Source of the DNA: an uncultured Alphaproteobacteria bacterium | GTDB lineage: Bacteria > Pseudomonadota > Alphaproteobacteria > Rs-D84 | Assembly (NCBI GenBank): GCA_947054455.1 | Contig: CAMRWN010000001.1 | Span: 4,595-68,594, forward strand | Length of the DNA: 64,000 bases | Direction: 5' to 3' | In this document: piece after piece, positions 3,274-55,929 of the stretch | Numbering within the stretch: the first letter of the stretch is position 1 | Layout: each line of letters starts with the position of its first letter | Translations under genes and position numbers: made by a program | The notes under the pieces: model-generated | The model's database searches: none | What the model was told of the DNA's origin: nothing | Seen by the model: only the letters and a program-made list of their open reading frames with translations

Positions 3274-3349
3274 GCCGGTTTAGCTCAGCTGGTAGAGCGG
3301 CTGATTTGTAATCAGTAGGTCGTTGGTTCAAGTCCGACAACCGGCACCA
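3274..3349 (+). tRNA. tRNA-Thr (anticodon UGU)
   Basis: Hand-folded cloverleaf. Acceptor GCCGGTT/AACCGGC, D-loop AGCTCAGCTGGTAGAGC, anticodon stem GCTGA/TCAGT with loop TTTGTAA, T-loop GGTTCAAGTCC, encoded CCA. Confidence 0.9.
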
Positions 3350-3452: not shown

Positions 3453-3481
3453 TTGATTTTTATTACGATTTGTGGTATAAT
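3453..3481 (+). promoter_or_regulatory. sigma70-type promoter with extended -10
   Basis: TTGATT (3453-3458), 17-nt spacer, TGgTATAAT (3473-3481). Confidence 0.55.
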
Positions 3482-3497
3482 AAATAACAAGAACAAA

Positions 3498-3520
3498 GGC
3501 GACATTAGTCGCCCCTTTTT
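3498..3520 (+). terminator. terminator-like hairpin about 10 nt after the predicted start site (attenuator or tiny RNA)
   Basis: ggcgac-atta-gtcgcc followed by CCTTTTT. Lies between the promoter at 3453 and the lysozyme start at 3641. Confidence 0.4.
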
Positions 3521-3640
3521 ATTATCCCGGAAATACCAGTACATCCCAATTGCCGCTGCAGTATCACAGAGGACGTTATTGGCACCGACGGTCGCACGGT
3601 CAGCAGTAAACCGTATACACCACAGAAAAAGAAATCGACA

Positions 3641-4225
3641 ATGAATAACATATTAACAAAAGAATTAAAAGACGCACTTAAACAGCACGAAGGAGTTAAA
3701 GAGCATCCTTATTTGGACTCGAAGAGGATTTTAACCATTGGAATTGGGAATAATGTAAGCAAAGCGGAAAATTTTATGGCACTAAATTTATTGGACGCTA
3801 AAGACGGCCATACTTTAAGTGTTGAAGAAAAAGAAAGTCTGTACGCCCAGATAATGTCCGATATTCAATCGAACAGTTTTTCAGAGAAAAATTATTCGCA
3901 ATATCATGTTCCAACGGCAGAAATAGAAAATAAATTCAATCAGCAACTGGAACAATCGTATCACGAACTGGAAAGAAAGATTCCCGACTTTCAGGCATTG
4001 CCGATATCGGTACAACAGGCTTTATTGGATATGCAGTTTAATATGGGCAATTCCGCCTTTCAGCCGACAGCGCAAACAATCCAAGGTCGCACGTATTTAG
4101 GATGGCCAAAATTGTTCGATGCCATAAAACGCCATGATTGGTCAACTGCTGCAAAAGAATCCAGGCGCAAGGACGTCCAGCCCGACAGAAACCAATGGAC
4201 ATATAATAAATTTATACAGGCATAA
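3641..4225 (+). CDS. GH24 (T4/lambda-type) lysozyme
   Basis: N-terminal LKQHEGVKEHPYLDSKRILTIGIGNNV matches the E...D...T-I-G-x-G catalytic region of phage lysozymes. No signal peptide. Confidence 0.75.
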   Translation: MNNILTKELKDALKQHEGVKEHPYLDSKRILTIGIGNNVSKAENFMALNLLDAKDGHTLSVEEKESLYAQIMSDIQSNSFSEKNYSQYHVPTAEIENKFNQQLEQSYHELERKIPDFQALPISVQQALLDMQFNMGNSAFQPTAQTIQGRTYLGWPKLFDAIKRHDWSTAAKESRRKDVQPDRNQWTYNKFIQA

Positions 4226-4282: not shown

Positions 4283-4768
4283 GTGCGCTGCGGTGTTTGT
4301 ATATTTAATATTTTGTATTTATTAATAATACCTTTTTCTGTATTTGGAAACAGTTTATTGTTAGCCGAAAATAAATGGGCATCGTGCGATTATTATGATA
4401 ACAACACCAAGAAAATTATTCATGAAGATTGTGAAGGCAGTAAAATCCAAATAGCAAGCTGCTCTGATGACACATGTTTTTTCCAAGCAAACTTTAATCA
4501 TGGCAATCCATGGAATTCTGAATGCATTATGTGGGGAAAGTTAAAATTGAATTCCGCAGACAAGGCATATGGAACCGCTATTGCAGAATATCGCAGTCGT
4601 GGCATGGATAACAGAAAATACGAAGATTGTGAGCTAGAATTTAGTATACATAATGGCATTTTACAAATTTCCATAATATCTGGCTGTGATAAGTACTGTA
4701 CCCCAAAAGAATTTGAATTCTACAACACTTATCATATTGATAACACCGGGGGTGCGGTAACTATGTAG
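4283..4768 (+). CDS. secreted Cys-rich protein (candidate lysozyme immunity/inhibitor)
   Basis: GTG start. Hydrophobic N-terminal signal (ILYLLIIPFSVFGNSLLLA) and 9 Cys after the predicted signal peptide (11 in the ORF). Lies 57 nt downstream of the lysozyme on the same strand. The function is inferred only from position. Confidence 0.5.
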   Translation: MRCGVCIFNILYLLIIPFSVFGNSLLLAENKWASCDYYDNNTKKIIHEDCEGSKIQIASCSDDTCFFQANFNHGNPWNSECIMWGKLKLNSADKAYGTAIAEYRSRGMDNRKYEDCELEFSIHNGILQISIISGCDKYCTPKEFEFYNTYHIDNTGGAVTM

Positions 4769-5630: not shown

Positions 5631-6380
5631 CTATTGCGCGTCCTGCGCGGCATCGTGCAGTTCTTGGGCGCGGGCCGCCGTCTCAATCTGCAGCAGCTGG
5701 TTTTCCAACGCCGTGCGTTCCGACGACTTGTATCCGGTTTCTGGTGCATCCTCTGCGGGCGCGGCCGCATCACCACGTGGCGCACCGGCGCCACCGTCGG
5801 CCACCGCCGGATTAATCAGATTGTTATAGATTTCCATAACCTCCTGAACGCCGGTCATATCGCGCGCCAGCAATTTGTTTTCAGGCCCGGGAATAAACCA
5901 CTGGTCCAGTTTTATCGCCGTCAACTGCATTATCGGACGTGTACGCGCATCCGCAATCCAGCGCGGCAGACGCGGCGCATCGGAATAGTACCACAGCGCA
6001 ATCCAATATACCGCCCCCATAATGACAACGCCGCGGATAATTCCGAATATAACCCCCAGCGTGCGGTCCGTGACGCGCATAACACTGTCCTGGATTTTAT
6101 CGCGCAATTTCTGGTTAAAGAACCCGACCAGCAGCAATATCGCAAAAAACACGATAAAATAAGACGCGACAAGCGTGCCGACCGTAGATTCAGACAATCC
6201 GAACCATCCCTGCAGCAATCCGTCCAGCACAGGCGATGCAAATCGCGCGGCAACGGCGGCCGCCACCCAAGAGAGCGTCGCAATCGTTTCAAAAACACCG
6301 CCGCGTATTGTCGCCCATATTGTGGACGCCAAAACAACGCCCACATATATGTAATCAAGTATCGTTAAATCTAGCATCAT
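5631..6380 (-). CDS. cvpA: CvpA family membrane protein
   Basis: N-terminus DYIYVGVVLASTIWATIRGGVFETIATLSWVAAAVAARF and a 4-TM layout resemble CvpA. The C-terminal extension is Ala/Gly-rich. Confidence 0.7.
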   Translation of the reverse strand: MMLDLTILDYIYVGVVLASTIWATIRGGVFETIATLSWVAAAVAARFASPVLDGLLQGWFGLSESTVGTLVASYFIVFFAILLLVGFFNQKLRDKIQDSVMRVTDRTLGVIFGIIRGVVIMGAVYWIALWYYSDAPRLPRWIADARTRPIMQLTAIKLDQWFIPGPENKLLARDMTGVQEVMEIYNNLINPAVADGGAGAPRGDAAAPAEDAPETGYKSSERTALENQLLQIETAARAQELHDAAQDAQ

Positions 6381-6399
6381 ATCAATTCAAGCAAATTGT

Positions 6400-6969
6400 T
6401 TATTTCTTTCCGCCGTCTTTTTTAATCAGCACAAAACCCAACGCCGCAACCAGCGCAATCAGCAAACCGTAAAACAACAGGTTTGATTCACCCTCTGTTT
6501 TTTTTTCAACAACCGCGGCCGCGTTGTATTCCGACACCGCATTGGCACGTTTTGCATTCGCCGCCTTGAATTCATCGGCATTTTCCGCCATCGCGTTCTT
6601 GTTTTCCGCAGCCGTCTGCTTTTGCGCGTCGGACATGTCCGCCTCTACCGCTTCGCGCAGTTCGGCCTGCATGAAATCCGCATATCCCTGAAAGCATTTT
6701 TCACCGATTACGATAACCGGAACACCGCCTGATTCATATTCGCATTTCGCCAGCGTATCCTGGAATTTCGGCAGGTTCGCCTGTTCCATTACATTAACGT
6801 TGCTGACCGTGATTTCCGGATATTCATAGACCAGCGTGCCTTCGATAAATTCGCGCGCATGATGACAATGCGGGCATGTCGGCGAATAATAAACCGTGAT
6901 GTTCGCCGCGGACGCCGCACCGATGAACGCCAGGCCGAAAAACGCAGCCAAGAATGATAATTTCTTCAT
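6400..6969 (-). CDS. exported thioredoxin/glutaredoxin-fold protein with C-terminal TM anchor
   Basis: Signal peptide, CPHC redox motif, GGVPVIVIG, C-terminal hydrophobic helix plus KKDGGKK. Confidence 0.7.
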   Translation of the reverse strand: MKKLSFLAAFFGLAFIGAASAANITVYYSPTCPHCHHAREFIEGTLVYEYPEITVSNVNVMEQANLPKFQDTLAKCEYESGGVPVIVIGEKCFQGYADFMQAELREAVEADMSDAQKQTAAENKNAMAENADEFKAANAKRANAVSEYNAAAVVEKKTEGESNLLFYGLLIALVAALGFVLIKKDGGKK

Positions 6970-7111
6970 ATTTTCTCCTTTTTACGGTTTGATTATAGAA
7001 ATCCGCGCGCGACGGTGCAAGACCTTTTTACATTCGCGGCGCGCAAAATTTTCCTGTTGTGTTTTGCGCGCCCTGCATGCACAATGAACAAAACCACCAA
7101 GGGGGCAAATA

Positions 7112-7693
7112 ATGTATTCACTGACACAGTTTCCGTTGCCGTATGACCGTGAGGCACTGGCACCATATATGTCCGGAACGACACTGGACTTTCACCACGG
7201 CCGTCATTTGGCGACATACATCAGCACACTTAACGACCTGATTGCTGACACAGAATATGCGGGTATGCCGCTGAACGAAATAATTGTTCAGGCGGCGAAC
7301 CGTGGCGCGCAAAAGATATTTAACAACGCAGCCCAGGTGTTCAACCACAACTTTTTCTTCCACTGCCTGCGTCGGGGCGAAGGCCACATTCCCGACGAAA
7401 TCGCATCCGCATTCGGCGGGGCTGACAATTTCCGCACGGAATTTAAAAAGGCGGCGTCCGGCGTGTTCGGCAGCGGATGGACCTGGCTGGTACGCGACGG
7501 GGATGAAATAAAAATCATTACAACCGCAAACGCGGACACGCCCATTGCACACGGGATTCGCCCGTTGCTGACCCTGGACGTATGGGAGCATGCATACTAC
7601 CTGGACTATCAGAACAGACGCGCCGATTTCATAGACGCATTTCTGGACCACTTGATAAACTGGGACTTTGTATTGGAAAACATGGCGTTATAA
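7112..7693 (+). CDS. sodB: Fe/Mn superoxide dismutase
   Basis: LPYDREALAPYMS, FHHGRH, DVWEHAYYLDYQNRR signature. Confidence 0.93.
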   Translation: MYSLTQFPLPYDREALAPYMSGTTLDFHHGRHLATYISTLNDLIADTEYAGMPLNEIIVQAANRGAQKIFNNAAQVFNHNFFFHCLRRGEGHIPDEIASAFGGADNFRTEFKKAASGVFGSGWTWLVRDGDEIKIITTANADTPIAHGIRPLLTLDVWEHAYYLDYQNRRADFIDAFLDHLINWDFVLENMAL

Positions 7694-7720
7694 AAAAACG
7701 GGGCGCGCACCCCGTTTTTT
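7692..7720. terminator. bidirectional terminator
   Basis: A-run, cgggg/ccccg hairpin, T-run, between convergent genes. Confidence 0.7.
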
Positions 7721-9101
7721 AATATCTGTCATAAATGACCGGCGACTTGTTTATTGTATAAATACGACCGTCGTTGTCCGTGTTGTAATATACATAAACT
7801 ACGTTTGCAGGCCCCATTGCGTCCCACGGGTTAAAGTTCCCAATGACCTGGCGCGTCGTATTGTGGGTAAAGACGGAATGAAACGTATTGTCAAACACGC
7901 GGGTATAATTGTCGGCAAACGACGGGCTGGACACCATGTTCATGACAATTACGCCACCCGGTGCGACGCGTGATTTTATACGCTGCATGAATTCCGCCGT
8001 AATCAGGGATTCCGGCACCTGGTAAGAGTTTGAATATACATCCAGCAAAATCAAATCGTATTCCAGCGGCGTGTTCTTTAAGAACTGGCTGGCATCCTGA
8101 ACGACGAATTTCTTGTTCGGCGTCAGGCGGCGTCCCAGAAACATTTTTTCAGACACGTTTTTAAGCGTGTGTTCTATATCCACAAACGTATAGTCGTTAA
8201 ACTTATCATCCAGTCCGGCTGTAAATCCACCCGCCCCCAAAACCAATATGCGGCGCACGCGGTCTGTGGGCATGTTGTATATAAAATTGTCATTCACATA
8301 ATTTATGTATTCGGCGGATTTGCCGGTTTTCGGATAATAAATAGACATCGGCAGCCCGTTCATATACAGCACGCGCGCATCACCCTGCTGATTAACGGAT
8401 ATTGTGGAATTGGCGTTGTTTACGATTATGCCAAAGTGCGTACGCTGGTATAGATCACTGTTTATAAACAATGCGCCCGCCACCACGGCGACACACAACG
8501 CCCACACCCACCAACGACGCCAGCAAACCAATGCGCCGGCTGTCGCCAGCAGACAAATCAGCACAACCGTATGGTTCACCCCAATGAACGGCATCAATAT
8601 CAGCGTCGTCGCCAGCGAACCAAAAACCGACCCGATTGTATCCCACGCCATTATGTTGCCGGTGTAATTGGTGTTGTACTTATGCAGCATACGCGACAGC
8701 AGCGTCGTGTTGAATCCGAACAGGAACGGCCCCACCGACAAGGCCAGCCCAGAATAAATAAATGTTTGAACAACGCCCGAAGTTATGCCGCCCCGATACA
8801 TCCACATAAAATAACGGGTAATCAGCGGGAAACTGGCGACCAATATCGTCAAAGCGGCAATTACCAGAAAACTGAGGCACAGCAGACGGCGCATTTTTAC
8901 CCCGCCGACCCGGCGCGCCCCGCCCAGAAAATACCCCAGCGACATGAATCCCAGAAATGTTCCCATAATAATGCTGGTGATGACGGCGCCGGAACCGACA
9001 TAGAACCCCAGCTGGCGCAGCACGACCAATTCCAGCGACAGACTGACATATCCGTTGAGAAAAATCAGAAATACCAGCCACGCGCGTAATTTGTTTGTCA
9101 T
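7719..9101 (-). CDS. fused membrane domain / spermidine synthase-like methyltransferase-fold protein
   Basis: About 7 TM helices, then a class-I MTase/aminopropyltransferase-like region (ILVLGAGGFTAG, DLILLDVYS). The ATG at 9101 has GGGGGAA upstream. Confidence 0.7.
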   Translation of the reverse strand: MTNKLRAWLVFLIFLNGYVSLSLELVVLRQLGFYVGSGAVITSIIMGTFLGFMSLGYFLGGARRVGGVKMRRLLCLSFLVIAALTILVASFPLITRYFMWMYRGGITSGVVQTFIYSGLALSVGPFLFGFNTTLLSRMLHKYNTNYTGNIMAWDTIGSVFGSLATTLILMPFIGVNHTVVLICLLATAGALVCWRRWWVWALCVAVVAGALFINSDLYQRTHFGIIVNNANSTISVNQQGDARVLYMNGLPMSIYYPKTGKSAEYINYVNDNFIYNMPTDRVRRILVLGAGGFTAGLDDKFNDYTFVDIEHTLKNVSEKMFLGRRLTPNKKFVVQDASQFLKNTPLEYDLILLDVYSNSYQVPESLITAEFMQRIKSRVAPGGVIVMNMVSSPSFADNYTRVFDNTFHSVFTHNTTRQVIGNFNPWDAMGPANVVYVYYNTDNDGRIYTINKSPVIYDRY

Positions 9102-9166
9102 TTGTTTTCCCCCGTACAATATACGCGCATGTTAATAAATTTTAACCGCCGCAGCAACGGCAAATT

Positions 9167-9466
9167 TCATTTTGCATGCAGCAGTCGAACATCGTCGAAT
9201 TCTGAATAACGGCCGAACATCGCCCCCGCAAACGGACACAGGGCGATAATTTTTCTGTTCTGACTACGCGCCAAGTCGCAAACCCGCCGCACCAGATTCA
9301 ACCCTATGCCGGAATTGCGATAGTCGTCGTGAACAGCGGTGTGTTCAATTATAAACTTGTCAATGCCGACACGCACAAATGTTATTTCACCAACATTGCG
9401 TCCGTCGCATTCTGCATAGAATCCCTGTCCGTCTGAAAACAAATTATATTTTATATCACGCGCCAT
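9167..9466 (-). CDS. small GNAT (YjdJ-type) N-acetyltransferase
   Basis: About 99 aa. HTAVHDDYRNSGIGLNLV and ALCPFA near the C-terminus are typical of the YjdJ-like GNAT family. Confidence 0.7.
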   Translation of the reverse strand: MARDIKYNLFSDGQGFYAECDGRNVGEITFVRVGIDKFIIEHTAVHDDYRNSGIGLNLVRRVCDLARSQNRKIIALCPFAGAMFGRYSEFDDVRLLHAK

Positions 9467-10564: not shown

Positions 10565-11999
10565 AATAAGATTTTGCCACAAAAACATACGTCGGGTCGG
10601 CATCATCCAGACAACGCCGCGTTATTTTGTATTTCTCCATCAGCGCTTCGAATTCCGCGTTTGTGGTCAAATCATAGCGTATGCGAAAAAATCCGATATG
10701 CCCAGCCGCCAATTCGGCGTCCAGCGCATTCAAATCAGCCACATCATGAATCATCGACCGGTTGCGCGCGGCGGCCGCGGCAAACATATCGCGCTGAACA
10801 GTATCCAGCATTTCGCGCGCCCCCGCCACGAATTCATCGCGGGCGATTGTGCGCTTTGACGCCTTGCCCAAATCGCGCCGCGTCAGCGTCAGTTCACCCG
10901 CCGCCATTTCACGCGCGCCAATCTCAACCCGCAGGGGAACGCCACGCTTTATCCATTTCCACATTTTGTCCGGCGCGCGCATATCCGACGTATCGGCCAG
11001 CACGCGTATACCCGCACCGCGCAAATCATCGGCCAATTTTTCTGCGTACGCGTTCAGTTCAGTTGCCGTATCATCGCGCGTAATCGGAATAATCACCACC
11101 TGGTGCGGTGCGACCGCCGGCGGCAGAACCAGACCGTCGTCATCCGAATGCACCATGAACAGACCGCCCATCATTCGCGTCGATGTTCCCCATGACGTCG
11201 TCCAGGCATGCTGCAACCTGCCGTCCGCCCCCAGATACTGGATTCCGAATGATTTTGCAAAATGCTGACCCAAATCATGGGATGTTCCCGCCTGCAATGC
11301 CTTGCCGTCCTGCATTATTTGTTCGGTGGTATATGTATGGTCGGCACCGGCAAACCGTTCTTCGGGTGTTTTTTCGCCCATAATAACGGGTATCGCCAGA
11401 ACATTTTCCATAAAGTCCGCATATAATTTATGCATCTTGCGCGCGTCGGCATTCGCCTCTTCGTGGGTTGCGAATACGTTGTGTCCTTCCTGCCAGTTGA
11501 ATTCGGCGGTACGCAGGAACATACGCGGCCGCATTTCCCAGCGCATGACGTTAACCCACTGATTCAGCTTCAACGGCAAATCACGATAAGACTGAACCCA
11601 ACGGGACATGGCCTCGCCGATAATGGTTTCGGATGTGGGTCGTATGATATATGGTTCGGTCAGTTTTGATTCCGGGTCCGGCTGCAGCGAACCGTCAATC
11701 ATTTTCAGACGATAATGGGTGACAACGGCCGCCTCTTTCGCAAATCCGGCGACATGTTCCGCCTCGCGGTTAAAGAAATCAATCGGAATCAGCAACGGAA
11801 AATTCGCGTTCAAAACACCCTGTGCCTTGATGCGGCGGTCCATTTCATCACGCATCAATTCCCAAATGGCCCACCCATAAGGCTTTATCGTCATGCATCC
11901 GCGAACAGGCGCGTTTTCGGCCAAATCGGCCGCTGTAATCAAATTCTGGTACCATTCGCTGAAATTCTCAGCACGCGTTGGTGTAATTGCAGTCTTCAT
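10563..11999 (-). CDS. proS: proline--tRNA ligase, archaeal/eukaryote-like type
   Basis: 478 aa. N-terminus TPTRAENFSEWYQNLITAADLAE. No large insertion (editing) domain. The protein ends in Tyr (FVAKSY), as in the Thermus/archaeal type. Confidence 0.9.
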   Translation of the reverse strand: MKTAITPTRAENFSEWYQNLITAADLAENAPVRGCMTIKPYGWAIWELMRDEMDRRIKAQGVLNANFPLLIPIDFFNREAEHVAGFAKEAAVVTHYRLKMIDGSLQPDPESKLTEPYIIRPTSETIIGEAMSRWVQSYRDLPLKLNQWVNVMRWEMRPRMFLRTAEFNWQEGHNVFATHEEANADARKMHKLYADFMENVLAIPVIMGEKTPEERFAGADHTYTTEQIMQDGKALQAGTSHDLGQHFAKSFGIQYLGADGRLQHAWTTSWGTSTRMMGGLFMVHSDDDGLVLPPAVAPHQVVIIPITRDDTATELNAYAEKLADDLRGAGIRVLADTSDMRAPDKMWKWIKRGVPLRVEIGAREMAAGELTLTRRDLGKASKRTIARDEFVAGAREMLDTVQRDMFAAAAARNRSMIHDVADLNALDAELAAGHIGFFRIRYDLTTNAEFEALMEKYKITRRCLDDADPTYVFVAKSY

Positions 12000-12000
12000 T

Positions 12001-12828
12001 TTACTTCTCTTTCTTGTCTTTTAATTCCATGTATTTGTCAGATACGATTTTATGCAGGGCCGCCGCAATCTGCTTTCTGTCCATCCCGGCCAGCGACGGC
12101 ACGGGCAAAACCGTTATCTCGACACAAAATCCGCCCACAACCATTGCATGAAATATCTGGGAAAACGCGCTGCGTTCACGCGTACACAGCGGCCCCTGCT
12201 CCATATCCCTGTTGTTAAAGTATGCATAGTGTTCGGCCAAATCCGCATCCGACATCGGCGTGCCGTCGCGGTGGCGGTAATGCATGGCGACCGGCTGAAC
12301 CATGACGTCGGAATTTTCAACGAAATTGAACAGCGTGCTTTTAAAGCGCTTTACATACGCGCCGTTTGTCGTGGTTCCTTCTGGGAACAGAAACATCGGG
12401 TACGAAACATTTTTTACCGTTTCCTGAACCACGCGCAGGGCGTCGGCCGCATGGGACGGACGACGGTCCACGAAAATCACGCCGAATTTTTTCGCCACCC
12501 ATCCGACCAGCGGCCATGATTCTATATCTTTCTTGGCAACAAAGCTGCCGCCGAACGCAATCGGATATGTTGCGATTTCAAACAGTGATATATGGTTTGT
12601 TATAACCAGCAGCGGCCGATGCGATTCCAGCCGTCCGTGAACACGGATTTTAATTCCGGTCAGCGCGACCAAAAACCACATGAATATACGCATATAACGC
12701 ACGCTGATACGCCCGCGCGGCATCAGCACAATCAGCGGCAGCTGCAATACCACCATAATCCAAAACAGCGCGAACCGCAGCGCGGCCCACGCGGTTGTAA
12801 AAACATTCTGGCGTCGGATGCGTGTCAT
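12001..12828 (-). CDS. olsA: lysophospholipid (PlsC-family) acyltransferase, OlsA-like
   Basis: NHISLFE (HX4D-type block, degenerate) and FPEGTTTNG motifs. Lies 2 nt downstream of the OlsB-like gene. Confidence 0.6.
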   Translation of the reverse strand: MTRIRRQNVFTTAWAALRFALFWIMVVLQLPLIVLMPRGRISVRYMRIFMWFLVALTGIKIRVHGRLESHRPLLVITNHISLFEIATYPIAFGGSFVAKKDIESWPLVGWVAKKFGVIFVDRRPSHAADALRVVQETVKNVSYPMFLFPEGTTTNGAYVKRFKSTLFNFVENSDVMVQPVAMHYRHRDGTPMSDADLAEHYAYFNNRDMEQGPLCTRERSAFSQIFHAMVVGGFCVEITVLPVPSLAGMDRKQIAAALHKIVSDKYMELKDKKEK

Positions 12829-12830
12829 GT

Positions 12831-13793
12831 TTATTGCGCCTCCTCGGGTTCCTTGACCTCTTCCACAAATTCGGCGTCGGCCGCATCTTCACGCAACAGG
12901 AATTCAACAAAGGCGCGCATCACCTTGAACGGGCCGGTTATCGGGAACAACGCAATTTTCCCCAGCGTCTTTATCGCACCGTCGCGGTCGTCTTCGACCA
13001 GTCCGTCCAGCGCGTTCTCGCGGCCCAGAAAATGCTTCTGGTATGCGGCGTCAATCTTTTTGGTCTGCAGCATTACAAACACGTCGTACGAATTGAACGG
13101 CGCATCGATAAAGACACCCTTGCCGAATGTTGCACCCAGACGCAGATACCCCTTTATCAGCGGCGTCATCTGGCGGCGCGCCTCTTCTTCGTCGACAAAA
13201 ACCTCGGGCAGGATGTTCATCCGCGACAGTTTCGGGTTTATGCCTTCGGCGAAATTCTCGCTCAGCACGGTCGCACGCAGGTTCGACGGCGACAAATGAT
13301 TATAATACAGGTATGATATGGCCTGTGCGGACGCCACTGAATTTTTGCCCACCCACGACGCGACGCCGAACAGAACACCAATTTTGCGGCGCACAATGTA
13401 TTCACCCAGACCGGCCCACAACATGCGCATCACCAGGGCGTTTTCCCGATACTCACGCGCGACGCATGCACGCGACATTTCGGCGATATTGCCGGAATAT
13501 TTCTTTATCTTGGTCAGATTGAATTCGGTTTCGGTATAAAATCCGCCCATTTTTTCGGCCGCATCGCGGTCGATAATGCGATATGTTCCAACCACCCGTC
13601 CGTTGTGCAGTACAACCATGTATTCGGCGAACCGGTCAAATGCATCATATTCCTCGCGCAGGTTTTTCTGCTCGTCGGTTGCGGATGCGCCCTCCTCCTC
13701 TACAAATACATCATATCTAAGGGCGCGAACCTGTCTGCGTTCCTCTTTGCTGCGGGTTAAACGAACTTCGTAATCACGAACCTTAATGGCCAT
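12831..13793 (-). CDS. olsB: GNAT-fold N-acyltransferase, OlsB-like (lyso-ornithine lipid synthase family)
   Basis: N-terminus EVRLTRSKEERRQVRALRYDVFVEEEG and overall length fit the OlsB/hemolysin-like acyltransferase family. Operon with a PlsC-type gene. Confidence 0.6.
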   Translation of the reverse strand: MAIKVRDYEVRLTRSKEERRQVRALRYDVFVEEEGASATDEQKNLREEYDAFDRFAEYMVVLHNGRVVGTYRIIDRDAAEKMGGFYTETEFNLTKIKKYSGNIAEMSRACVAREYRENALVMRMLWAGLGEYIVRRKIGVLFGVASWVGKNSVASAQAISYLYYNHLSPSNLRATVLSENFAEGINPKLSRMNILPEVFVDEEEARRQMTPLIKGYLRLGATFGKGVFIDAPFNSYDVFVMLQTKKIDAAYQKHFLGRENALDGLVEDDRDGAIKTLGKIALFPITGPFKVMRAFVEFLLREDAADAEFVEEVKEPEEAQ

Positions 13794-13958
13794 AAATAAT
13801 CCTTATGTTTCATATATCATGGGAAAGAATATCAAAGATACACTACCGTTTCAATCCTTTTTATTTATACTTGCCAATGCAATCGGCATGATATATAGTT
13901 AAATATCATGGAATAAAGCATTCCATGGCTTTGTCTTCAAACGCAAAGGGATTCATGT

Positions 13959-15167
13959 ATGTCTGACATAGGCGGCACACGCGGCAGCGATGCGGCGCAA
14001 CGCATAAAAGTTTTATTTTGCATTCCTGACATGATTATCGGCGGTGTGGAAACGGTTTTTTTGAAAACCTTGGAAAACATCGCGGCCACAGGTTGTGCGG
14101 ATATTGCCGTCGTCATGAAGAACAAGCTGCGCGAACCGTTTTACATCGAATGGTTTCGTGCGCATCCTGAAATAAAACTGCACGTAATCTACCCTGCCGC
14201 GCACCGTTTCGAAGATGCAAAGAAATACATGCGCGGATTCCCGCTGAAAAACATTCGAAAAATCGCGTTCAGCGTTTACAAGGACATAAAAAACGCCCAA
14301 ATCACGCGAAAAAGGCTTTTTGAAGGCTATGACGTTATAATAGATTACAAAAACGCCTATTTTTCAAAACTGCTGCGCAAATGCACCACGCCAAAGATAA
14401 CCTGGATTCACGGTTCCATAAATTTCTTTGAAAACGACAATATTATAAAACACGCAGGCGGATATGAAAAAATTGTCTGCCTGTCGGACAACTTTATGAC
14501 GGAATTTCGGCGCCTGCATCCCGAACATGCGGATAAAATCGTACGAATATACAATCCGTTCGACGCCGAACAAATACGGCGCGCGGCCGCCAATGGCGAC
14601 ACCTATGTGGGCAAGTATTTTTGCGTCGTATCGCGTCTGGATCCGGACAAGGATATAAAAACAATAATCGACGCGTTTGAAATTTTTCACGAAAACGACA
14701 AATTCAAAGATGTACGGCTGCTGATTATAGGCACGGGGCGCGATGCAAAAAAACTGCGCGAATACGCCGCGCAACAAAAATCCAGACACGCTATCGTGTT
14801 CGCCGGCAAGATTCCCGCCCCGTTCGGATACATGCGCGGCGCGATTGCACACATTCTGTCCAGCCATAACGAAGGGCTGCCCACCGTTTTGATAGAGGCC
14901 GCATCCCTGGGCGTTGCGAACATATCGTCCGATTGCCCCAGCGGGCCACGCGAAATCCTGCTGAACGGGGACGCAGGATTGCTGTTTGATATCGGCAACG
15001 CGCGCCAACTGGCCCAGCATATGACAAATATCTGCAGCGGGAAAACCGACACGCGCAAAATGACAGACGCGGCAACCGCCGCACTGGACCGGTTTGACGC
15101 CAAAGAAATAACAAATCAAATAATGCGCCTAATTTACGAGACAACAGGGAGCAAATCATGTCGATAA
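13959..15167 (+). CDS. glycosyltransferase, GT-B fold (GT4-like)
   Basis: C-terminal HNEGLPTVLIEAASLGVANISSDCPSGPREIL (E-x7-E-type region). Confidence 0.8.
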   Translation: MSDIGGTRGSDAAQRIKVLFCIPDMIIGGVETVFLKTLENIAATGCADIAVVMKNKLREPFYIEWFRAHPEIKLHVIYPAAHRFEDAKKYMRGFPLKNIRKIAFSVYKDIKNAQITRKRLFEGYDVIIDYKNAYFSKLLRKCTTPKITWIHGSINFFENDNIIKHAGGYEKIVCLSDNFMTEFRRLHPEHADKIVRIYNPFDAEQIRRAAANGDTYVGKYFCVVSRLDPDKDIKTIIDAFEIFHENDKFKDVRLLIIGTGRDAKKLREYAAQQKSRHAIVFAGKIPAPFGYMRGAIAHILSSHNEGLPTVLIEAASLGVANISSDCPSGPREILLNGDAGLLFDIGNARQLAQHMTNICSGKTDTRKMTDAATAALDRFDAKEITNQIMRLIYETTGSKSCR

Positions 15168-42946: not shown

Positions 42947-42967
42947 CTGCACCGGACGCAAATCCTG

Positions 42968-43222
42968 TTATTTTGATTTTTCACGGTTCGCGGCATGCGC
43001 ATCGACAAAGGCCGCAAAATACATCATCGGCAGATTCATTGCATTCAAAACCTTTACCAGACTCTGCATTGACACCCAGCGTTCTTTGCCGTACTCATTC
43101 ACACGTTTGCTTTTATTAAATGTTGTGGCGTTCAATCCGCCCACGCACGCCATTCGTGAACAAGACATTTTATTTTCATTTGCCATACTGTCTATTGCAC
43201 GCCAGATATCGTCATGTGTCAT
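42968..43222 (-). CDS. CI/LexA-type HTH repressor N-terminal domain (no S24 peptidase domain)
   Basis: MTHDDIWRAIDSMANENKMSCSRMACVGGLNATTFNKSKR resembles the N-terminal HTH of alphaproteobacterial phage-repressor-like proteins. Only 84 aa. Confidence 0.6.
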   Translation of the reverse strand: MTHDDIWRAIDSMANENKMSCSRMACVGGLNATTFNKSKRVNEYGKERWVSMQSLVKVLNAMNLPMMYFAAFVDAHAANREKSK

Positions 43223-43326
43223 ATCTCTCTCCTAAAAAGGCATTATTTGCAAGAATGCATTCTCATTGTGCATGATTTTTCATTGAAAATCAACTGCCGG
43301 TTATAAGTAAAATATCCTATTGCAGA

Positions 43327-43794
43327 TTGGTAAATACAGACAAGAATCAAATCGCAATATTCGATGGCACAACACTGAGCCTGTATGAAAACGATAAAAA
43401 AATCAAATCCTGGGATGGAATGTCTGGGGCCCCCGATTATCAAGGCAAAGAAAATCAGGGGTTGAAAAATAAAGGTCCTTTACCAGAAGGCACGTATGTT
43501 GCAAGACAGAGCAACTTGTATTATTTTGATGACATGTCAAAAATTGAACGTATGGCCGCATATGCTGGCAGAACAAGATTTCCTTGGGGGCGTGGTTCTT
43601 GGGGAAATTCAAAAGTAGCATTGGAACCATCTTCACAAAACGATATGCGTGGACGTGGTAAATTCAATATTCACGGTGGCAAGACCCCAGGCTCAAAAGG
43701 CTGCATTGATTTAACATCACAAATGGATGATTTCACACGATGGTTTGAAAATAATAAGAAAGATGTTATACTGCAAGTTAGGTATATCAGATGA
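43327..43794 (+). CDS. Tlde1/DUF2778-like L,D-transpeptidase-fold toxin
   Basis: FDGTTLSLYENDKKIKSWDGMSGAP ... NKGPLPEGTYV ... FNIHGGKTPGSKGCIDL (His ... S-x-G-C catalytic pattern). TTG start, so the true start is uncertain. Confidence 0.6.
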   Translation: MVNTDKNQIAIFDGTTLSLYENDKKIKSWDGMSGAPDYQGKENQGLKNKGPLPEGTYVARQSNLYYFDDMSKIERMAAYAGRTRFPWGRGSWGNSKVALEPSSQNDMRGRGKFNIHGGKTPGSKGCIDLTSQMDDFTRWFENNKKDVILQVRYIR

Positions 43795-43812
43795 CACAAA
43801 AAGATCTTAAGC

Positions 43813-44139
43813 ATGAATAAAAAGAAAACGTATTTTTTATCTATTTTCATGGTCATCCTATGTGCATTGGCAATAATGTTTGCCTTTGACGCATATCAGA
43901 CTGACGGCAAATATGATGGATTGTGGGTATTTTGTTTTTCGTCTACAATACACCATCTTGACTATAGCATTATAACGGATACCTTATTATCCATTTTATT
44001 TGGTATCTGGGGGACTGTTGTTGGAATCAAACTGAATAAATATTTCAAGTGGCACTGGTTATTAATATTACTATCCATACCTCTTAGTCTAGTCATACTT
44101 GTATTTTGCCGAATGACGTTAGACTATATCTTGTTTTAG
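43813..44139 (+). CDS. small 3-4 TM membrane protein (candidate immunity)
   Basis: 108 aa, very hydrophobic, 18 nt downstream of the Tlde1-like gene. Confidence 0.5.
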   Translation: MNKKKTYFLSIFMVILCALAIMFAFDAYQTDGKYDGLWVFCFSSTIHHLDYSIITDTLLSILFGIWGTVVGIKLNKYFKWHWLLILLSIPLSLVILVFCRMTLDYILF

Positions 44140-44302
44140 GCTTTCCACTGCCAGGCCGAAAAAGGCCAATGTATAGAAACTGGTTTTTATTTGCCGATTT
44201 TTGGAATTTTGCGATATACCATGGATGAGTTATAAATAAAAAGCCCCGATTTCCCGGGGCTTTGAACGTCATATGCTTTTATATTCAAAACACAACTTAT
44301 TC

Positions 44303-44334
44303 CTGGCGGATGGGGAGGGATTCGAACCCCCGGA
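44303..44334. repeat. 32-bp exact copy of the tRNA-Ser 3' end (att-like)
   Basis: ctggcggatggggagggattcgaacccccgga is identical to 46471-46502. The flanks diverge on both sides. Confidence 0.85.
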
Positions 44335-44545
44335 TGTTTTGGGTCTGGGCACGATGTTTAGATTTTTATTGCAACTGTTGCCATTTTATCTTTAACCCCA
44401 CAAAAGCCAGATTTGCGCCCGTTTGAGGCCTTTATTTCATGCAAAATCCAAGTGTTATAAAATTAATATCATCAGATATGCTTTCTTTATTGATTCAACA
44501 ATCGGTTATTTGACTTATAAAACAAATTATCCTATACTGTTCTCG

Positions 44546-44959
44546 ATGAAACAATTAATAACTATATTTTTATTAATCTTACCGATATCCACATATGCCG
44601 AAACTGCCCTGAACTATGAAACAGATATTGAAAAGTGCGACAAACAGTTTGAACACGATATGGATAGAAATTTAACAGCTGCAGAAATGATTGCAGCGAC
44701 AGATTCTCAGGTCGTCTGTTATGAATCTGTCGCACATAAAATTATTGATAAATATTATTCTAAGCAATCAAAACCGATGAAAAACAATCTTCATGAATCT
44801 ATAACAGCTTATAAGAGAACAGCAAACGATATGTATAACCCAGACAGATGCTATAACGAATGTGGCAATTTAACTGCGCTGATGGCATACAGTCCAACTC
44901 TGGATTTCATTAAAAATTATATCGAACATTTAACAGATGCAATAAATTCAAATTTTTAG
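44546..44959 (+). CDS. periplasmic protein (candidate immunity/lysozyme inhibitor)
   Basis: ORF track 44423..44959. The ATG at 44546 begins a signal peptide (MKQLITIFLLILPISTYA). 4 Cys. Convergent with the MuF-GH108 gene, with stop codons 1 nt apart. Confidence 0.55.
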   Translation: MKQLITIFLLILPISTYAETALNYETDIEKCDKQFEHDMDRNLTAAEMIAATDSQVVCYESVAHKIIDKYYSKQSKPMKNNLHESITAYKRTANDMYNPDRCYNECGNLTALMAYSPTLDFIKNYIEHLTDAINSNF

Positions 44960-44960
44960 C

Positions 44961-46172
44961 TTAATATCTGTTCGTTCGCGCCTCCCAACCACGACCATAT
45001 CTATTCCAATTCGCAAGACTTTGTAAATATTCTATACGTTTCTCTATTAAAGCTTCCATAAATCTATCAACTTGATTTGCTGGAATATTATTAAGAGCTT
45101 GTATCGTTCGCGCGCCGATATCGCCATCCACTGCTATATTTGTTCCCTGTGTTTCGTTAATTGTGTTCTGCACCATTGTGCCAACATTCGAATAATTACT
45201 CATAACCCCCATATCAAATATTGCGTGTGCTATACGCAGATTGTTTATATCTCCAATATTCCTGTCATTATAGTATAGTTCCGTGTAAATTTGTTCGGCT
45301 TGCCGTCCTGTCAATTCTCTTACATTTTCAGGGAAACCCGCTTCTGGGTGTCTTTGGTTATATGTATTTAACGTTGGCTGTGTTATGCCAGAATTTGTTG
45401 GCTGATCTATACGATTTGGATTATCTATATACCCGCCTTCTTCTGCCATTGTTTTACGTATAGATTCTTCACGAATCTGATCATTGTTTTTTTCTGCAGA
45501 CATATTATTTGTTCCTTGTATATTCTGATTATTTTCATTTGACCGAATATCTGTATCTAACGGTTGATTACCTGCAAACTGGCTACGGCTTATTACACTC
45601 CCATCTTCATCAATCTCTATTTCTTCAACCCAACAACGACAATTAGGATGCACCGGACATTCGGGAATATCCTCTTCATTGTAGAATGTTTGCCCATCCA
45701 AACTTTCACATTCATCGCAAGTTTTTTCAGATACTTCGCCGTGCCAAATCCATATTTTTCGTACCTTTTCAAAATTTGGGATATCCAGGTCATAAGTTTC
45801 CAGATGCCGCATCAAAATAACATCGTCATCATACAGAACTTTAACAGGTATATTCTCACCGGGAATTACACAAGCATCAATATCAAAACTGATACCCAGG
45901 TTTTCAAAGTATTCACCATATTCTTCCAATATTTCTTCTTCTGCTTCATTTTTCGCTTCTTCAAAATCCGCATCAATTTGTCTTTGCGCTTCATTAAATT
46001 GTTCTAGTGTCATATCGTATTCGGGTTCGGTCATGCGACCGGTGGCATCGGTCTGTGCCGTACCGGGATACAGCAGATTCAGGTACTTTTCCGCCATGGC
46101 GTATACCTTGCTATTTTTATCCATATATGCGGGCGAAGTTATTAAATCCCGTAAAAACTTTGGTGTTTTCAT
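44961..46172 (-). CDS. MuF (SPP1 gp7/Mu F) head-morphogenesis domain fused to GH108 muramidase + PG_binding_3
   Basis: IWIWHGEVSEKTCDECESLDGQTFYNEEDIPECPVHPNCRCW is the MuF signature. MAEEGGYIDNPNRIDQPTNSGIT is the GH108 start. IAVDGDIGARTIQALN ... GRGWEARTNRY is PG_binding_3. Confidence 0.7.
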   Translation of the reverse strand: MKTPKFLRDLITSPAYMDKNSKVYAMAEKYLNLLYPGTAQTDATGRMTEPEYDMTLEQFNEAQRQIDADFEEAKNEAEEEILEEYGEYFENLGISFDIDACVIPGENIPVKVLYDDDVILMRHLETYDLDIPNFEKVRKIWIWHGEVSEKTCDECESLDGQTFYNEEDIPECPVHPNCRCWVEEIEIDEDGSVISRSQFAGNQPLDTDIRSNENNQNIQGTNNMSAEKNNDQIREESIRKTMAEEGGYIDNPNRIDQPTNSGITQPTLNTYNQRHPEAGFPENVRELTGRQAEQIYTELYYNDRNIGDINNLRIAHAIFDMGVMSNYSNVGTMVQNTINETQGTNIAVDGDIGARTIQALNNIPANQVDRFMEALIEKRIEYLQSLANWNRYGRGWEARTNRY

Positions 46173-46471
46173 TTATGATTCCTTTTAGTAAATAAAAAAG
46201 CCCGCGGGCGGCGGGACAATAAAAAAACGGCGGCAAATGTCGCCTTTGTTCATATTAGCTATTATATCACAAACACTCGTAAAAATCAATAAGTTTAAGT
46301 ATGCCCAACATCACTGACTATGCGAAATTGGCCGAGATATAGTTATCCGAAAAATTCGGCGGATATGGCCATAACGGCGGGCTTATCGTAGTCAGCAAAA
46401 CAACAAAATCCCCGCGGAACACGGGGATTTTTGGTATATATTTCGTATAAATTTGAACTTATACTTATCAC

Positions 46472-46561
46472 TGGCGGATGGGGAGGGATTCGAACCCCCG
46501 GAAGCATTGCTGCTTCAACGGTTTTCAAGACCGCCGCATTCGACCGCTCTGCCACCCATCC
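46472..46561 (-). tRNA. tRNA-Ser (anticodon UGA)
   Basis: Reverse complement folds as acceptor GGATGGG/CCCATCC, anticodon stem GCGGT/ACCGT with loop CTTGAAA, a long variable arm, T-loop GGGGGTTCGAATCCCTC and encoded CCA. Confidence 0.9.
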
Positions 46562-55303: not shown

Positions 55304-55349
55304 TAATATTTATTTGCATTTCGAATATTATTTAAGATACAGTATCATT

Positions 55350-55472
55350 ATGCGCGTGGCCGCGCCCCGCCCCGTTTGGTTGGAGGGTGATGAATATATA
55401 GAATAAATCACACTATTGTAAGGTATAAGTTAGGAACCTCCAACCGCCTTGAAAAATTTCAGGCGTTTTTTT
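55350..55472 (+). ncRNA. structured RNA, unit A (short paralog), class unknown
   Basis: Promoter TTGCAT-18-TACAGT (55314-55343). GC hairpin 55352-55365. GGTTGGAGG 55378-55386 pairs with CCTCCAACC 55437-55445. Stem gtgat/atcac closes a 15-nt loop gaatatatagaataa. Terminator 55446-55472. Confidence 0.45.
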
Positions 55473-55509
55473 ATTTGATATTCCAATCTTTTTAAGATAT
55501 ACTACCCAT

Positions 55510-55689
55510 TGTAATAGGGGTCCTATTATGCGAGATTAAGCTCTCGCACAACCAGCGCCCGCGCGGGCGTAAAATGCCAACCCGAATGGGGGTTGGAGGC
55601 CGTGAATATATTGAATAAACGGTGAGCATCTGGTTGTGCAAAAAGCTTAACCTCCAATCCCCGCCCTGTACATTACATGGCGGATTTTT
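55510..55689 (+). ncRNA. structured RNA, unit B, class unknown
   Basis: Promoter TTGATA-17-TATACT (55475-55503). Two 5' hairpins. Long-range helix 55536-55555 / 55630-55650. 12-bp helix 55588-55599 / 55651-55662. Loop gaatatattgaataa. Terminator 55661-55689. Confidence 0.55.
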
Positions 55690-55757
55690 ATTATAATCGG
55701 TGTATGATTTTGATGGAATTTCCATAAAAGTCTGATAAAGTACTGATTATAAATAGG

Positions 55758-55929
55758 TGCATCCTGTTATAGTGAGCCTGAAAAACTCATAACAAAGTCG
55801 CCCGCGCGGGCGTTATCGCGTCCAACCTCATTTGGTTGGAGTCGGTCGAATACACAAAATAAGACCGGGGATTAACTTTGTTATCTTTTTCAGCTCCAAC
55901 CACCTCGAAATAATTTCCGGTGGTTTTTT
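55758..55929 (+). ncRNA. structured RNA, unit C, class unknown (possibly also the leader of the next ORF)
   Basis: Same architecture as B with different helix sequences: 55778-55798 / 55875-55893 and 55834-55841 / 55894-55901. Loop gaatacacaaaataa. Terminator 55900-55929. The 5' end is not well defined. Confidence 0.5.

Follow-up and report, generated by a model that had tools for sequence, protein, structure and literature searches.

A tRNA-associated gene pair of gut Alphaproteobacteria as a probable polymorphic cell-wall effector and cognate immunity protein

The 64,000-nt stretch analysed here (the window) belongs to contig CAMRWN010000001.1 of an uncultured alphaproteobacterium of the order Rs-D84, and contains a small islet in which a gene for a muramidase-like protein of 403 amino acids (aa) converges with a gene for an exported protein of 137 aa. 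The two proteins are probably a mobile polymorphic cell-wall effector and its cognate immunity protein, members of an undescribed toxin family limited to gut Alphaproteobacteria related to Candidatus Enterousia. No description of this family was found in the literature searched, which included papers that mention Enterousia.

The preliminary description of this DNA had reported a 403-aa open reading frame (ORF) on the minus strand, with a MuF (SPP1 gp7) head-morphogenesis signature in its N-terminal half, an Asn/Gln-rich linker, and a GH108-type start and PG_binding_3-type end to the remainder. The ORF was recovered with every sequence string quoted for it, the linker is present, and both C-terminal assignments lie above the Pfam cut-offs (Glyco_hydro_108, PF05838, E=5.7e-14, 52.9 bits against a cut-off of 21.2; PG_binding_3, PF09374, E=2e-7, 31.5 bits against 24.6). 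The C-terminal half, including the EEGGY motif, aligns to Protein Data Bank (PDB) entries 7dnp, 2is5 and 2ikb and to the TtsA entries 6v40 and 6v3z. The proposed TtsA/ZliS-type module is therefore correct as to fold and not as to equivalog membership, the score against the NCBIfam model for holin-associated muramidases (NF040573) being 62.5 bits, far under its cut-off of 240. In PHROGs, the protein matched an endolysin family (phrog_315, 3.9e-28) and a head-morphogenesis family (phrog_4728, 1.2e-11), with further head-morphogenesis families matching over the same short stretch. No holin-like gene adjoins the effector gene, and no toxin awaiting secretion is encoded nearby.

The remaining Pfam family named in the preliminary description fell short of its threshold. 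Phage_Mu_F (PF04233) matched residues 136-182 only, equivalent to profile positions 61-111 of 112, with 26.8 bits against a gathering score of 29.6, and the MuF model TIGR01641 scored 23.1 against a cut-off of 39.65; i.e., the last ~50 residues of MuF, a Cys4 knuckle, are present and the full domain is not. Phage MuF proteins in IMG/VR were matched by residues ~143-180 only (in one example, L013, a canonical 313-aa MuF protein encoded downstream of a portal gene carries the same motif at its end), and no full-length relative of the effector was found in that database. The AlphaFold2 model of the N-terminal domain (N-domain; predicted local distance difference test score, pLDDT, 85) consists of N-terminal helices, a long helix (residues 56-92) and a beta hairpin (102-129), followed by the knuckle. 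Thirteen residues are invariant in a 54-member alignment: Y16, Y30, D42, G45, W143, C152, C155, P170, P173, H175, N177, C178 and C180. Residues 1-135 have no MuF match in either sequence or fold. A full MuF fold was considered for the N-domain and rejected, since a Foldseek search of the PDB gave no match and a structure search of BFVD returned MuF-type minor capsid proteins only, over 46-65 columns that correspond to the knuckle. The carrier is a MuF remnant grafted on a lineage-specific fold, not a MuF domain.

A full-length search returned 240 homologues that are 45-85% identical over the first ~200 residues and differ in their C-termini, these being GH108+PG_binding_3, Phage_lysozyme (GH24) or Tlde1/YkuD domains. 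The best 120 N-domain matches comprised 27 GH108, 38 GH24 and 51 Tlde1/YkuD proteins, three frameshifted Tlde1 proteins and one fragment, with no other type of C-terminal toxin domain (warhead) among them. When 185,579 species genomes were scanned, 91 family loci were found, nearly all in Candidatus Enterousia or in alphaproteobacterial metagenome-assembled genomes from gut or rumen, and several genomes contained two or three copies. Candidatus Enterousia (order Rs-D84) has genomes of <1 Mb and retains the genes for peptidoglycan synthesis (PMC12306168). Clustering of the warheads over 83 loci gave 26 Tlde1, 26 GH108 (13 long and 13 short, the latter of 285 aa), 17 GH24a and seven GH24b. The assignment of the 403-aa protein to the polymorphic-toxin type was thus borne out, the same N-domain carrying GH108, two types of GH24 and Tlde1/YkuD.

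The convergent neighbour is also as described, a signal-peptide protein with four cysteines whose gene stops 1 nt from the stop of the toxin gene. The protein begins MKQLITIFLLILPISTYA|ETAL and has a Sec-type signal peptide, and Cys31, Cys58, Cys102 and Cys106 are all invariant. The AlphaFold2 model is helical (pLDDT 79). The protein matches no family in Pfam, PHROGs or NCBIfam, and its own family is a small one (90 representatives in a set of 1.8 billion proteins). Identity with LprI/DUF1311 (PF07007) was considered and rejected as unsupported: no Pfam match was found in the protein, in 18 other members of its alignment or in 10 distant representatives. One representative of the family (P0216) is a natural fusion with another partner family, which resembles what immunity proteins often show.

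Across the family, each type of warhead has its own kind of neighbour. Tlde1 warheads are accompanied by a co-directional protein of ~105-128 aa with about three transmembrane (TM) segments, long GH108 forms by convergent secreted proteins of three families (that of the 137-aa protein among them), and short GH108 forms by a co-directional secreted protein of ~177 aa. GH24a is accompanied by a convergent relative of the 137-aa protein (seven loci) or a co-directional lipoprotein (eight loci), and GH24b by a convergent lipoprotein of ~312 aa (7/7). The mutual information between warhead and neighbour was 1.374 nats over 73 loci, or ~90% of the warhead entropy, against a maximum of 0.553 in 5000 shuffles, figures that are inflated by the shared descent of the modules. 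Individual loci (numbered L001 onwards) illustrate the same pattern. A 74%-identical GH108 orthologue occupies a different chromosomal position in L001 and L002 (next to tRNA-Ser(CGA) in the latter), and the 137-aa product of its convergent gene is 87% identical to the protein of the window. L003, at the same lgt/tRNA-Ser(UGA) site as the window, carries a GH24 allele with a convergent 140-aa gene, the product of which is 44% identical overall and shares the signal peptide exactly. At the tRNA-His site of L005-L007, a Tlde1 allele precedes, in order, a co-directional gene for a 117-aa membrane protein and an orphan GH24 ORF (168 aa) accompanied by a 111-aa lipoprotein. The convergent gene therefore behaves as a cognate partner, as had been suspected: it is retained beside the orthologous toxin elsewhere, is replaced by a diverged subfamily beside GH24, and belongs to a set of neighbours that accounts for most of the warhead entropy.

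The ~177-aa signal-peptide protein that follows the 285-aa GH108 forms (L153-L166, e.g., L153 and L161) resembles the non-catalytic part of GH108 and lacks the EGGY block. Judging by that resemblance, it may be a dead-enzyme immunity protein.

Alignment of the window with L003 by blastn revealed two conserved arms. The first extends from the promoter to toxin codon ~180 (46291-45633; 88.8% identical), and the second comprises immunity codons 1-33 and the DNA upstream of them (44643-44147; 86.9% identical). The 989 bp between the arms, which encode the toxin C-terminus and the mature immunity protein, gave no DNA alignment to the GH24 allele of L003, and the chromosomal flanks of the two loci are ~70% identical, below the islet arms. 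The N-domain of the window is 85% identical to that of L003 and 62% identical to that of L001; relative to L001, the C-terminus is 90% and the partner 87% identical. As read from these alignments, the history of the locus is mosaic, the variable halves of toxin and partner being swapped as one block between genomes. Both variable halves lie in one block between conserved arms because the two genes are convergent. The ratio of non-synonymous to synonymous substitution rates (dN/dS) was 0.09 for the GH108+PG_binding_3 half (against L001), 0.086 for the mature partner and 0.26 for the N-domain; both genes are therefore kept by purifying selection.

The toxin gene is preceded by a ~80-nt leader in which two tandem terminators directly follow the promoter. 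The promoter is conserved in 57/57 aligned family leaders, and two hairpins are present in 58/64 leaders and one in the remaining 6/64, with every warhead type represented. The stems vary yet stay complementary (e.g., GGCGAC/GTCGCC, GGACGAC/GTCGTC, GACGGC/GCCGTC, GGCAC/GTGCC). RNAalifold predicted no pairs on a MAFFT alignment of 57 leaders, in which the short hairpins are out of register; the hairpins were scored in each sequence individually, by detection of a hairpin plus T-run, against a control set. The control set of upstream regions from the same loci contained 440 with no hairpin, 56 with one and 56 with two, those with two being mostly the toxins themselves. No similarity between the leader and the structured RNAs at 55314-55929 of the window was seen by eye. 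One metatranscriptome (X24) contained 2-3x contigs over parts of the toxin ORF and its leader, which DNA carry-over may explain.

The complete control design occurs only before the toxin in the 64-kb window, and 81 sites with an extended -10 promoter and tandem terminators were found in ~0.9 Mb of related loci. Seventy-one of these precede family toxins or pseudogenes, two precede stand-alone GH24 genes and two lie at locus edges. A further two precede Mtd_N tail-fibre-like genes (Pfam, 3.5e-15), and four precede the gene for a 201-aa protein in which a lytic domain is fused to a full MuF (PF04233, 43 bits). Phage late genes under processive antitermination are controlled in this way, with terminators placed immediately after the promoter. 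By analogy, the design of the leader suggests co-regulation with components of a phage-derived particle. The Mtd_N-type genes encode 188 aa and stand alone amid housekeeping genes (L089, minus strand, ~1140-1711; L108, minus strand, 11879-12445, beside ackA and acpS). The 201-aa protein (L092 ~2137, L107 ~8240, L112 ~8306, L163 ~7449) has the reverse order, with the warhead first and MuF last, and its lytic domain belongs to a 'tail injection transglycosylase' or endolysin PHROG.

The pair is flanked by nrdD/nrdG, lgt, a gene for a Bax1-I-type membrane protein and glyS, and, as the preliminary description stated, no phage structural gene is present nearby (none within 6-8 kb, either here or in the other loci inspected). 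The islet starts at the 3' end of tRNA-Ser(UGA) and ends at a partial copy of it: 44295-44341 and 46463-46509 form a 47-nt direct repeat that is 89% identical, with a 31-nt exact core and a spacing of 2168. The terminator beyond the distal copy is probably the original terminator of tRNA-Ser. The GC content across the islet region is 0.33-0.38, against 0.50-0.55 in the flanks, and the 2.17 kb bounded by the att-like repeats are filled by the two genes only. A tRNA 3' end, a direct repeat and atypical composition, the features by which tRNA-integrated islands are recognised, are thus found together. Family islets elsewhere also lie at the 3' ends of tRNA genes; exact repeats of the tRNA end of at least 16 nt were absent downstream of the toxin in most other loci checked. 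The islet was detected in mouse and rat gut metagenomes. In one of these data sets (run X8), a contig joins position 44299, in the tRNA fragment, to position 46291, at the toxin promoter, through a 24-nt terminator; such a junction may stem from islets in tandem or from an excised circle.

Two further observations concern the integration site. In L003, genes for an OLD-family ATPase/TOPRIM protein and a UvrD helicase (Gabija-like; 10740-14878) lie just past the toxin islet, and the lgt/tRNA-Ser locus is a hot spot for conflict genes. In many related loci, though not in the window, a conserved element of ~150 nt lies between the tRNA and the toxin promoter (L090 5613-5789, L094 5724-5865, L105, L122, L128, L139, L140, L154 with two tandem copies, and L160). 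The element opens with the 5' half of the acceptor stem of the adjoining tRNA, has a conserved core '..CAGGTTCGGRRCG..GTGAAAGGGGCCCA..GGGAAT..', and ends with an exact copy of the last 19-20 nt of that tRNA (His, Glu, Ser, Arg or Lys), and it resembles a small tRNA-like or tRNA-targeting element.

The window contains three family loci, of which one is intact, one orphan and one degraded (Table 1). The orphan lies in a second low-GC stretch (42950-44300) that comprises a helix-turn-helix gene, a 155-aa Tlde1/YkuD ORF and a gene for a 108-aa polytopic membrane protein. The ORF product is 50% identical (blastp) to the C-terminus of the full-length toxin of L005; no ribosome-binding site is visible before the ORF and no remnant of the N-domain was found upstream. 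The 108-aa protein matches the profile of the Tlde1-linked 3-TM proteins with E=1.4e-7 and high compositional bias. The segment 43327-44139 is an older cassette, distal to the tRNA fragment and on the strand opposite the intact toxin. The degraded locus lies beside tRNA-Thr, where the family promoter and leader hairpin 1 (3454-3525) run into the final part of the N-domain, '...IPEIPVHPNCRC...', which is in frame with a GH24-type lysozyme ORF of 194 aa (3641-4225; Pfam Phage_lysozyme, 1.8e-7); leader hairpin 2, the ribosome-binding site and ~167 codons are deleted. Orphan warhead/partner cassettes also lie next to full-length genes in L005 and L108. The compact L108 array (6001-9221) opens with a full Tlde1 toxin and its membrane partner, continues with an orphan GH108 whose secreted partner is convergent, and closes with an orphan copy of the ~177-aa dead-GH108-like partner (8682-9221).

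Table 1. Features of the effector/partner islet and of the related loci in the window
Feature	Position	Strand	Basis
403-aa effector, no signal peptide: N-domain, linker, GH108, PG_binding_3	44961..46172	-	ORF and profile searches
Family-defining N-domain, residues 1-195	45588..46172	-	Family alignment, AlphaFold2
MuF/SPP1-gp7-type Cys4 knuckle, residues 136-187	45612..45767	-	Pfam, IMG/VR, BFVD
Asn/Gln-rich linker, about residues 196-235	45468..45587	-	Sequence reading
GH108 catalytic domain, residues 239-324, EEGGY motif	45201..45458	-	Pfam, PDB alignment
PG_binding_3 domain, residues 334-399	44976..45173	-	Pfam
Toxin promoter, TTGATT-17-TATAAT, extended -10 TG	46261..46289	-	Promoter scan, 10/12 matches
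5' leader: two tandem hairpin+T-run terminators (46244-46232, 46215-46201), then AAGGA ribosome-binding site	46194..46244	-	
137-aa exported, helical, 4-Cys protein, candidate cognate immunity protein (inhibitor)	44546..44959	+	ORF, family, model
Own promoter of the 137-aa gene, TTGACT-17-TATACT, leader without terminators	44510..44538	+	Promoter scan
Exchangeable cassette: toxin codons ~181-403 and immunity codons ~34-137	44644..45632	.	blastn, window against L003
tRNA-Ser(UGA), integration target	46472..46561	-	ARAGORN
Intrinsic terminator just past tRNA-Ser, islet side	46405..46431	-	Terminator scan: 12-pair stem and T-run
att-like direct repeat, copy of tRNA-Ser 3' end, distal islet end	44295..44341	-	Repeat search
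Terminator after tRNA-Ser fragment	44240..44263	-	Terminator scan
Stand-alone Tlde1/YkuD ORF, 155 aa, TTG start	43327..43794	+	Pfam Tlde1_dom, 8.3e-10
108-aa polytopic membrane protein, candidate immunity protein for Tlde1 cassette	43813..44139	+	Profile match
5'-deleted family member beside tRNA-Thr (3274-3349)	3454..4225	+	tblastn, translation
161-aa signal-peptide Cys-rich protein after degraded member, candidate immunity protein	4283..4768	+	No Pfam match

A mechanism can be proposed from these observations. The toxin, which has no signal peptide, would be made only when an antiterminator overrides the leader, and the N-domain would specify a dedicated exit route. The likeliest such route would be as cargo of a phage-derived particle, with type IV secretion as the alternative. 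Particle cargo is favoured, by analogy, because the knuckle is the portal- or capsid-associated end of MuF and because the control region is common to tail-fibre-like and full-MuF genes. Once in the periplasm of a target cell, the enzyme would cut glycan strands and cause lysis. The 137-aa protein, exported by Sec, would block the GH108 domain in the periplasm, and the producer and its kin would be protected. A broader and more tentative proposal, which may well not hold in all its parts, is that the hydrolases with a MuF knuckle are cargo of a domesticated phage-derived particle (a weapon or an entry device used against neighbours), that the dispersed warhead, Mtd_N-fibre and full-MuF lytic genes form one regulon under a Q-like processive antiterminator, and that the convergent layout evolved for one-step cassette exchange.

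Several points weigh against the interpretation of the pair as effector and immunity protein. Besides the inflation of the co-variation figures noted above, no recognisable inhibitor fold was found in the 137-aa protein by PDB fold search (nothing at E<0.1, and generic helical bundles only) or by Pfam, and, since its family occurs next to GH108 as well as GH24 warheads, it shows no strict specificity for a single fold. The delivery step draws on analogy and on a control region shared with only the two and four non-toxin genes described above, all of them in other genomes, and no secretion or particle genes are present in the 64-kb window. The 2.17-kb islet has no integrase to account for its mobility. 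Lastly, an entry enzyme paired with an exclusion factor would leave an identical genomic signature.

This last alternative, the main rival although we regard it as unlikely, is that the 403-aa protein is a wall-breaching enzyme packaged in the head of a phage-like or gene-transfer-agent-like particle and ejected from it, serving to breach the peptidoglycan of the recipient at injection and not to kill, and that its partner is a Spackle-like inhibitor of entry by sibling particles (superinfection exclusion); the polymorphism of the cassettes would then result from an arms race of entry against exclusion. Virion heads have the MuF knuckle as a signature, similar fusions of lytic and MuF domains are classed by PHROGs as 'head and packaging', 'DNA pilot' or 'tail injection transglycosylase', and the control region common to tail-fibre-like and full-MuF genes fits with such a particle. 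The lysozyme gp5 of phage T4 and its periplasmic inhibitor Spackle provide a precedent. Peptidoglycan enzymes carried by virions as an aid to injection are well established (PMC5512222). However, warheads of the Tlde1/YkuD type are known as toxins rather than hole-punchers (PMC9638812), and the occurrence of several warheads per genome, together with orphan toxin/immunity arrays, typifies loci of antagonism. Moreover, particle genes were seen near none of ~90 loci, and the genes lie on mobile tRNA islets instead of in a structural operon.

It is improbable that the protein is a contact-dependent effector of a bacteria-killing type IV secretion system (T4SS), with the N-domain as a new recognition signal comparable to that of the Xanthomonas X-Tfe/X-Tfi pairs. 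The cargo of the Xanthomonas T4SS does include peptidoglycan-hydrolase effectors with periplasmic immunity proteins (PMC10933484), but here no XVIPCD-like C-terminal signal is present and conservation lies at the N-terminal end, the one motif that can be recognised stems from phage heads, and, in the loci examined, it is fibre-like and MuF genes rather than vir genes that have the same control region.

A housekeeping or lysis muramidase, i.e., a TtsA/ZliS-like secretion helper or an endolysin beside an unrelated periplasmic protein, is less probable again and would be a considerable surprise. The GH108+PG_binding_3 architecture is that of TtsA, the best PDB matches include its structures, and the endolysin PHROG match is strong in E value. 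Against these stand the low score with the holin-associated model, the absence nearby of a holin or of a toxin to secrete, the presence of GH24 and Tlde1 domains on the same N-domain, the co-variation of the neighbour with the warhead, and orphan cassettes and horizontal mobility that are untypical of housekeeping genes. That the pair is a non-functional remnant of a decayed prophage, in keeping with the earlier suggestion that it was retained after prophage decay, can scarcely be credited: the genes are orphaned from phage genes on a low-GC islet beside a tRNA without an integrase, and some other copies are degraded (that at 3454-4225 of the window and several frameshifted relatives), but the ORFs are intact with dN/dS of ~0.09, the promoter and leader are conserved in 64 loci, and the att-bounded pair of genes is found again, free of phage genes, beside different tRNAs in many species (at least 91 species-level genomes).

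If the pair is an effector with its immunity protein, the idea of the MuF polymorphic toxin is extended in three directions absent from the literature searched, namely periplasm-acting warheads, a reduced carrier and an alphaproteobacterial chromosomal location. Gut bacteria with genomes of <1 Mb invest in several such loci, which bears on how they compete with neighbouring bacteria or feed on them. The convergent cassette, running from the toxin constant region to the immunity signal peptide, is a compact architecture for the joint swap of toxin and antidote. The promoter and its double-terminator leader give a starting point from which the regulator, the remaining members of the regulon and, through these, the delivery machine could be sought. 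The partner families, none of which is annotated in Pfam, are candidates for new GH108 and GH24 muramidase inhibitors.

Among known systems, the closest are the MuF polymorphic toxins. Those described are encoded in prophages next to packaging genes, mainly in Firmicutes, and have cytoplasm-acting domains (PMC3482391; PMC5576092; PMC12226406), including nucleases, ADP-ribosyltransferases, (p)ppApp synthetases and metallopeptidases; the 2017 study by Jamet never mentions 'lysozyme' or 'peptidoglycan' (PMC5576092). The present family shares with them (PMC3482391; PMC5576092; Apk2, PMC12226406) a constant MuF-related N-terminal part, a variable C-terminal toxin, an adjoining immunity gene (a candidate here) and presumed delivery via phage capsids. 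It differs in that only the last ~50 MuF residues are present, below threshold, the other ~135 N-terminal residues having their own fold; in its location on 2-kb chromosomal tRNA islets instead of prophage sites beside portal or terminase genes; in that all warheads are directed at peptidoglycan and the partners are predicted to be exported; and in its alphaproteobacterial hosts, where those of MuF toxins are mostly Firmicutes.

The pairing of a periplasm-acting muramidase or L,D-transpeptidase-fold toxin with an adjoining exported immunity gene is also seen in Tse3-Tsi3 (PMC3792639) and Tlde1-Tldi1 (PMC9638812) of type VI secretion systems (T6SS) and in the Xanthomonas X-Tfe/X-Tfi pairs (PMC10933484), and the Tlde1 warhead type is itself shared with this family. 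In contrast to those pairs, no PAAR, VgrG, Hcp, MIX, XVIPCD or VirD4 link and no T6SS genes are visible in the window, and the carrier of the present effector is phage-derived. The GH108 muramidases (coliphage N4 gp61, Salmonella TtsA 6v40/6v3z and the ZliS-type 7dnp/2is5/2ikb) have the same catalytic fold, EGGY motif and C-terminal PG_binding_3, but are stand-alone proteins of ~170-200 aa that act from inside the producer, whereas here a 235-aa N-terminal carrier plus linker precedes the enzyme, an exported partner is dedicated to it, and its family swaps warheads.

The arrangement of a full-length toxin followed by stand-alone C-terminal modules with immunity genes, and the swapping of warheads by recombination, recall the arrays of contact-dependent growth inhibition (CDI; cdiA-CT/cdiI), Rhs and MafB systems. 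In contrast to these, toxin and immunity genes are convergent in many members here, the exchanged block is bounded by the toxin constant region and by the immunity signal-peptide codons and promoter, and the orphan modules start exactly at the warhead, with no constant-region homology. In phage T4, the tail lysozyme gp5 and the periplasmic inhibitor Spackle are a particle-carried hydrolase and its inhibitor from one genetic entity. Virion-borne peptidoglycan enzymes are likewise known in polyvalent and ejected phage proteins (PMC5512222). Both the T4 pair and these virion-borne lytic domains differ from the present pair, which is accompanied by no virion genes and belongs to a family that includes the toxin-type Tlde1 among its warheads. 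Set beside all of these systems, the family is a new combination: a variant of the MuF-type toxin with cell-wall warheads, a ~50-residue knuckle carrier on a new fold, and a phage-free chromosomal site.

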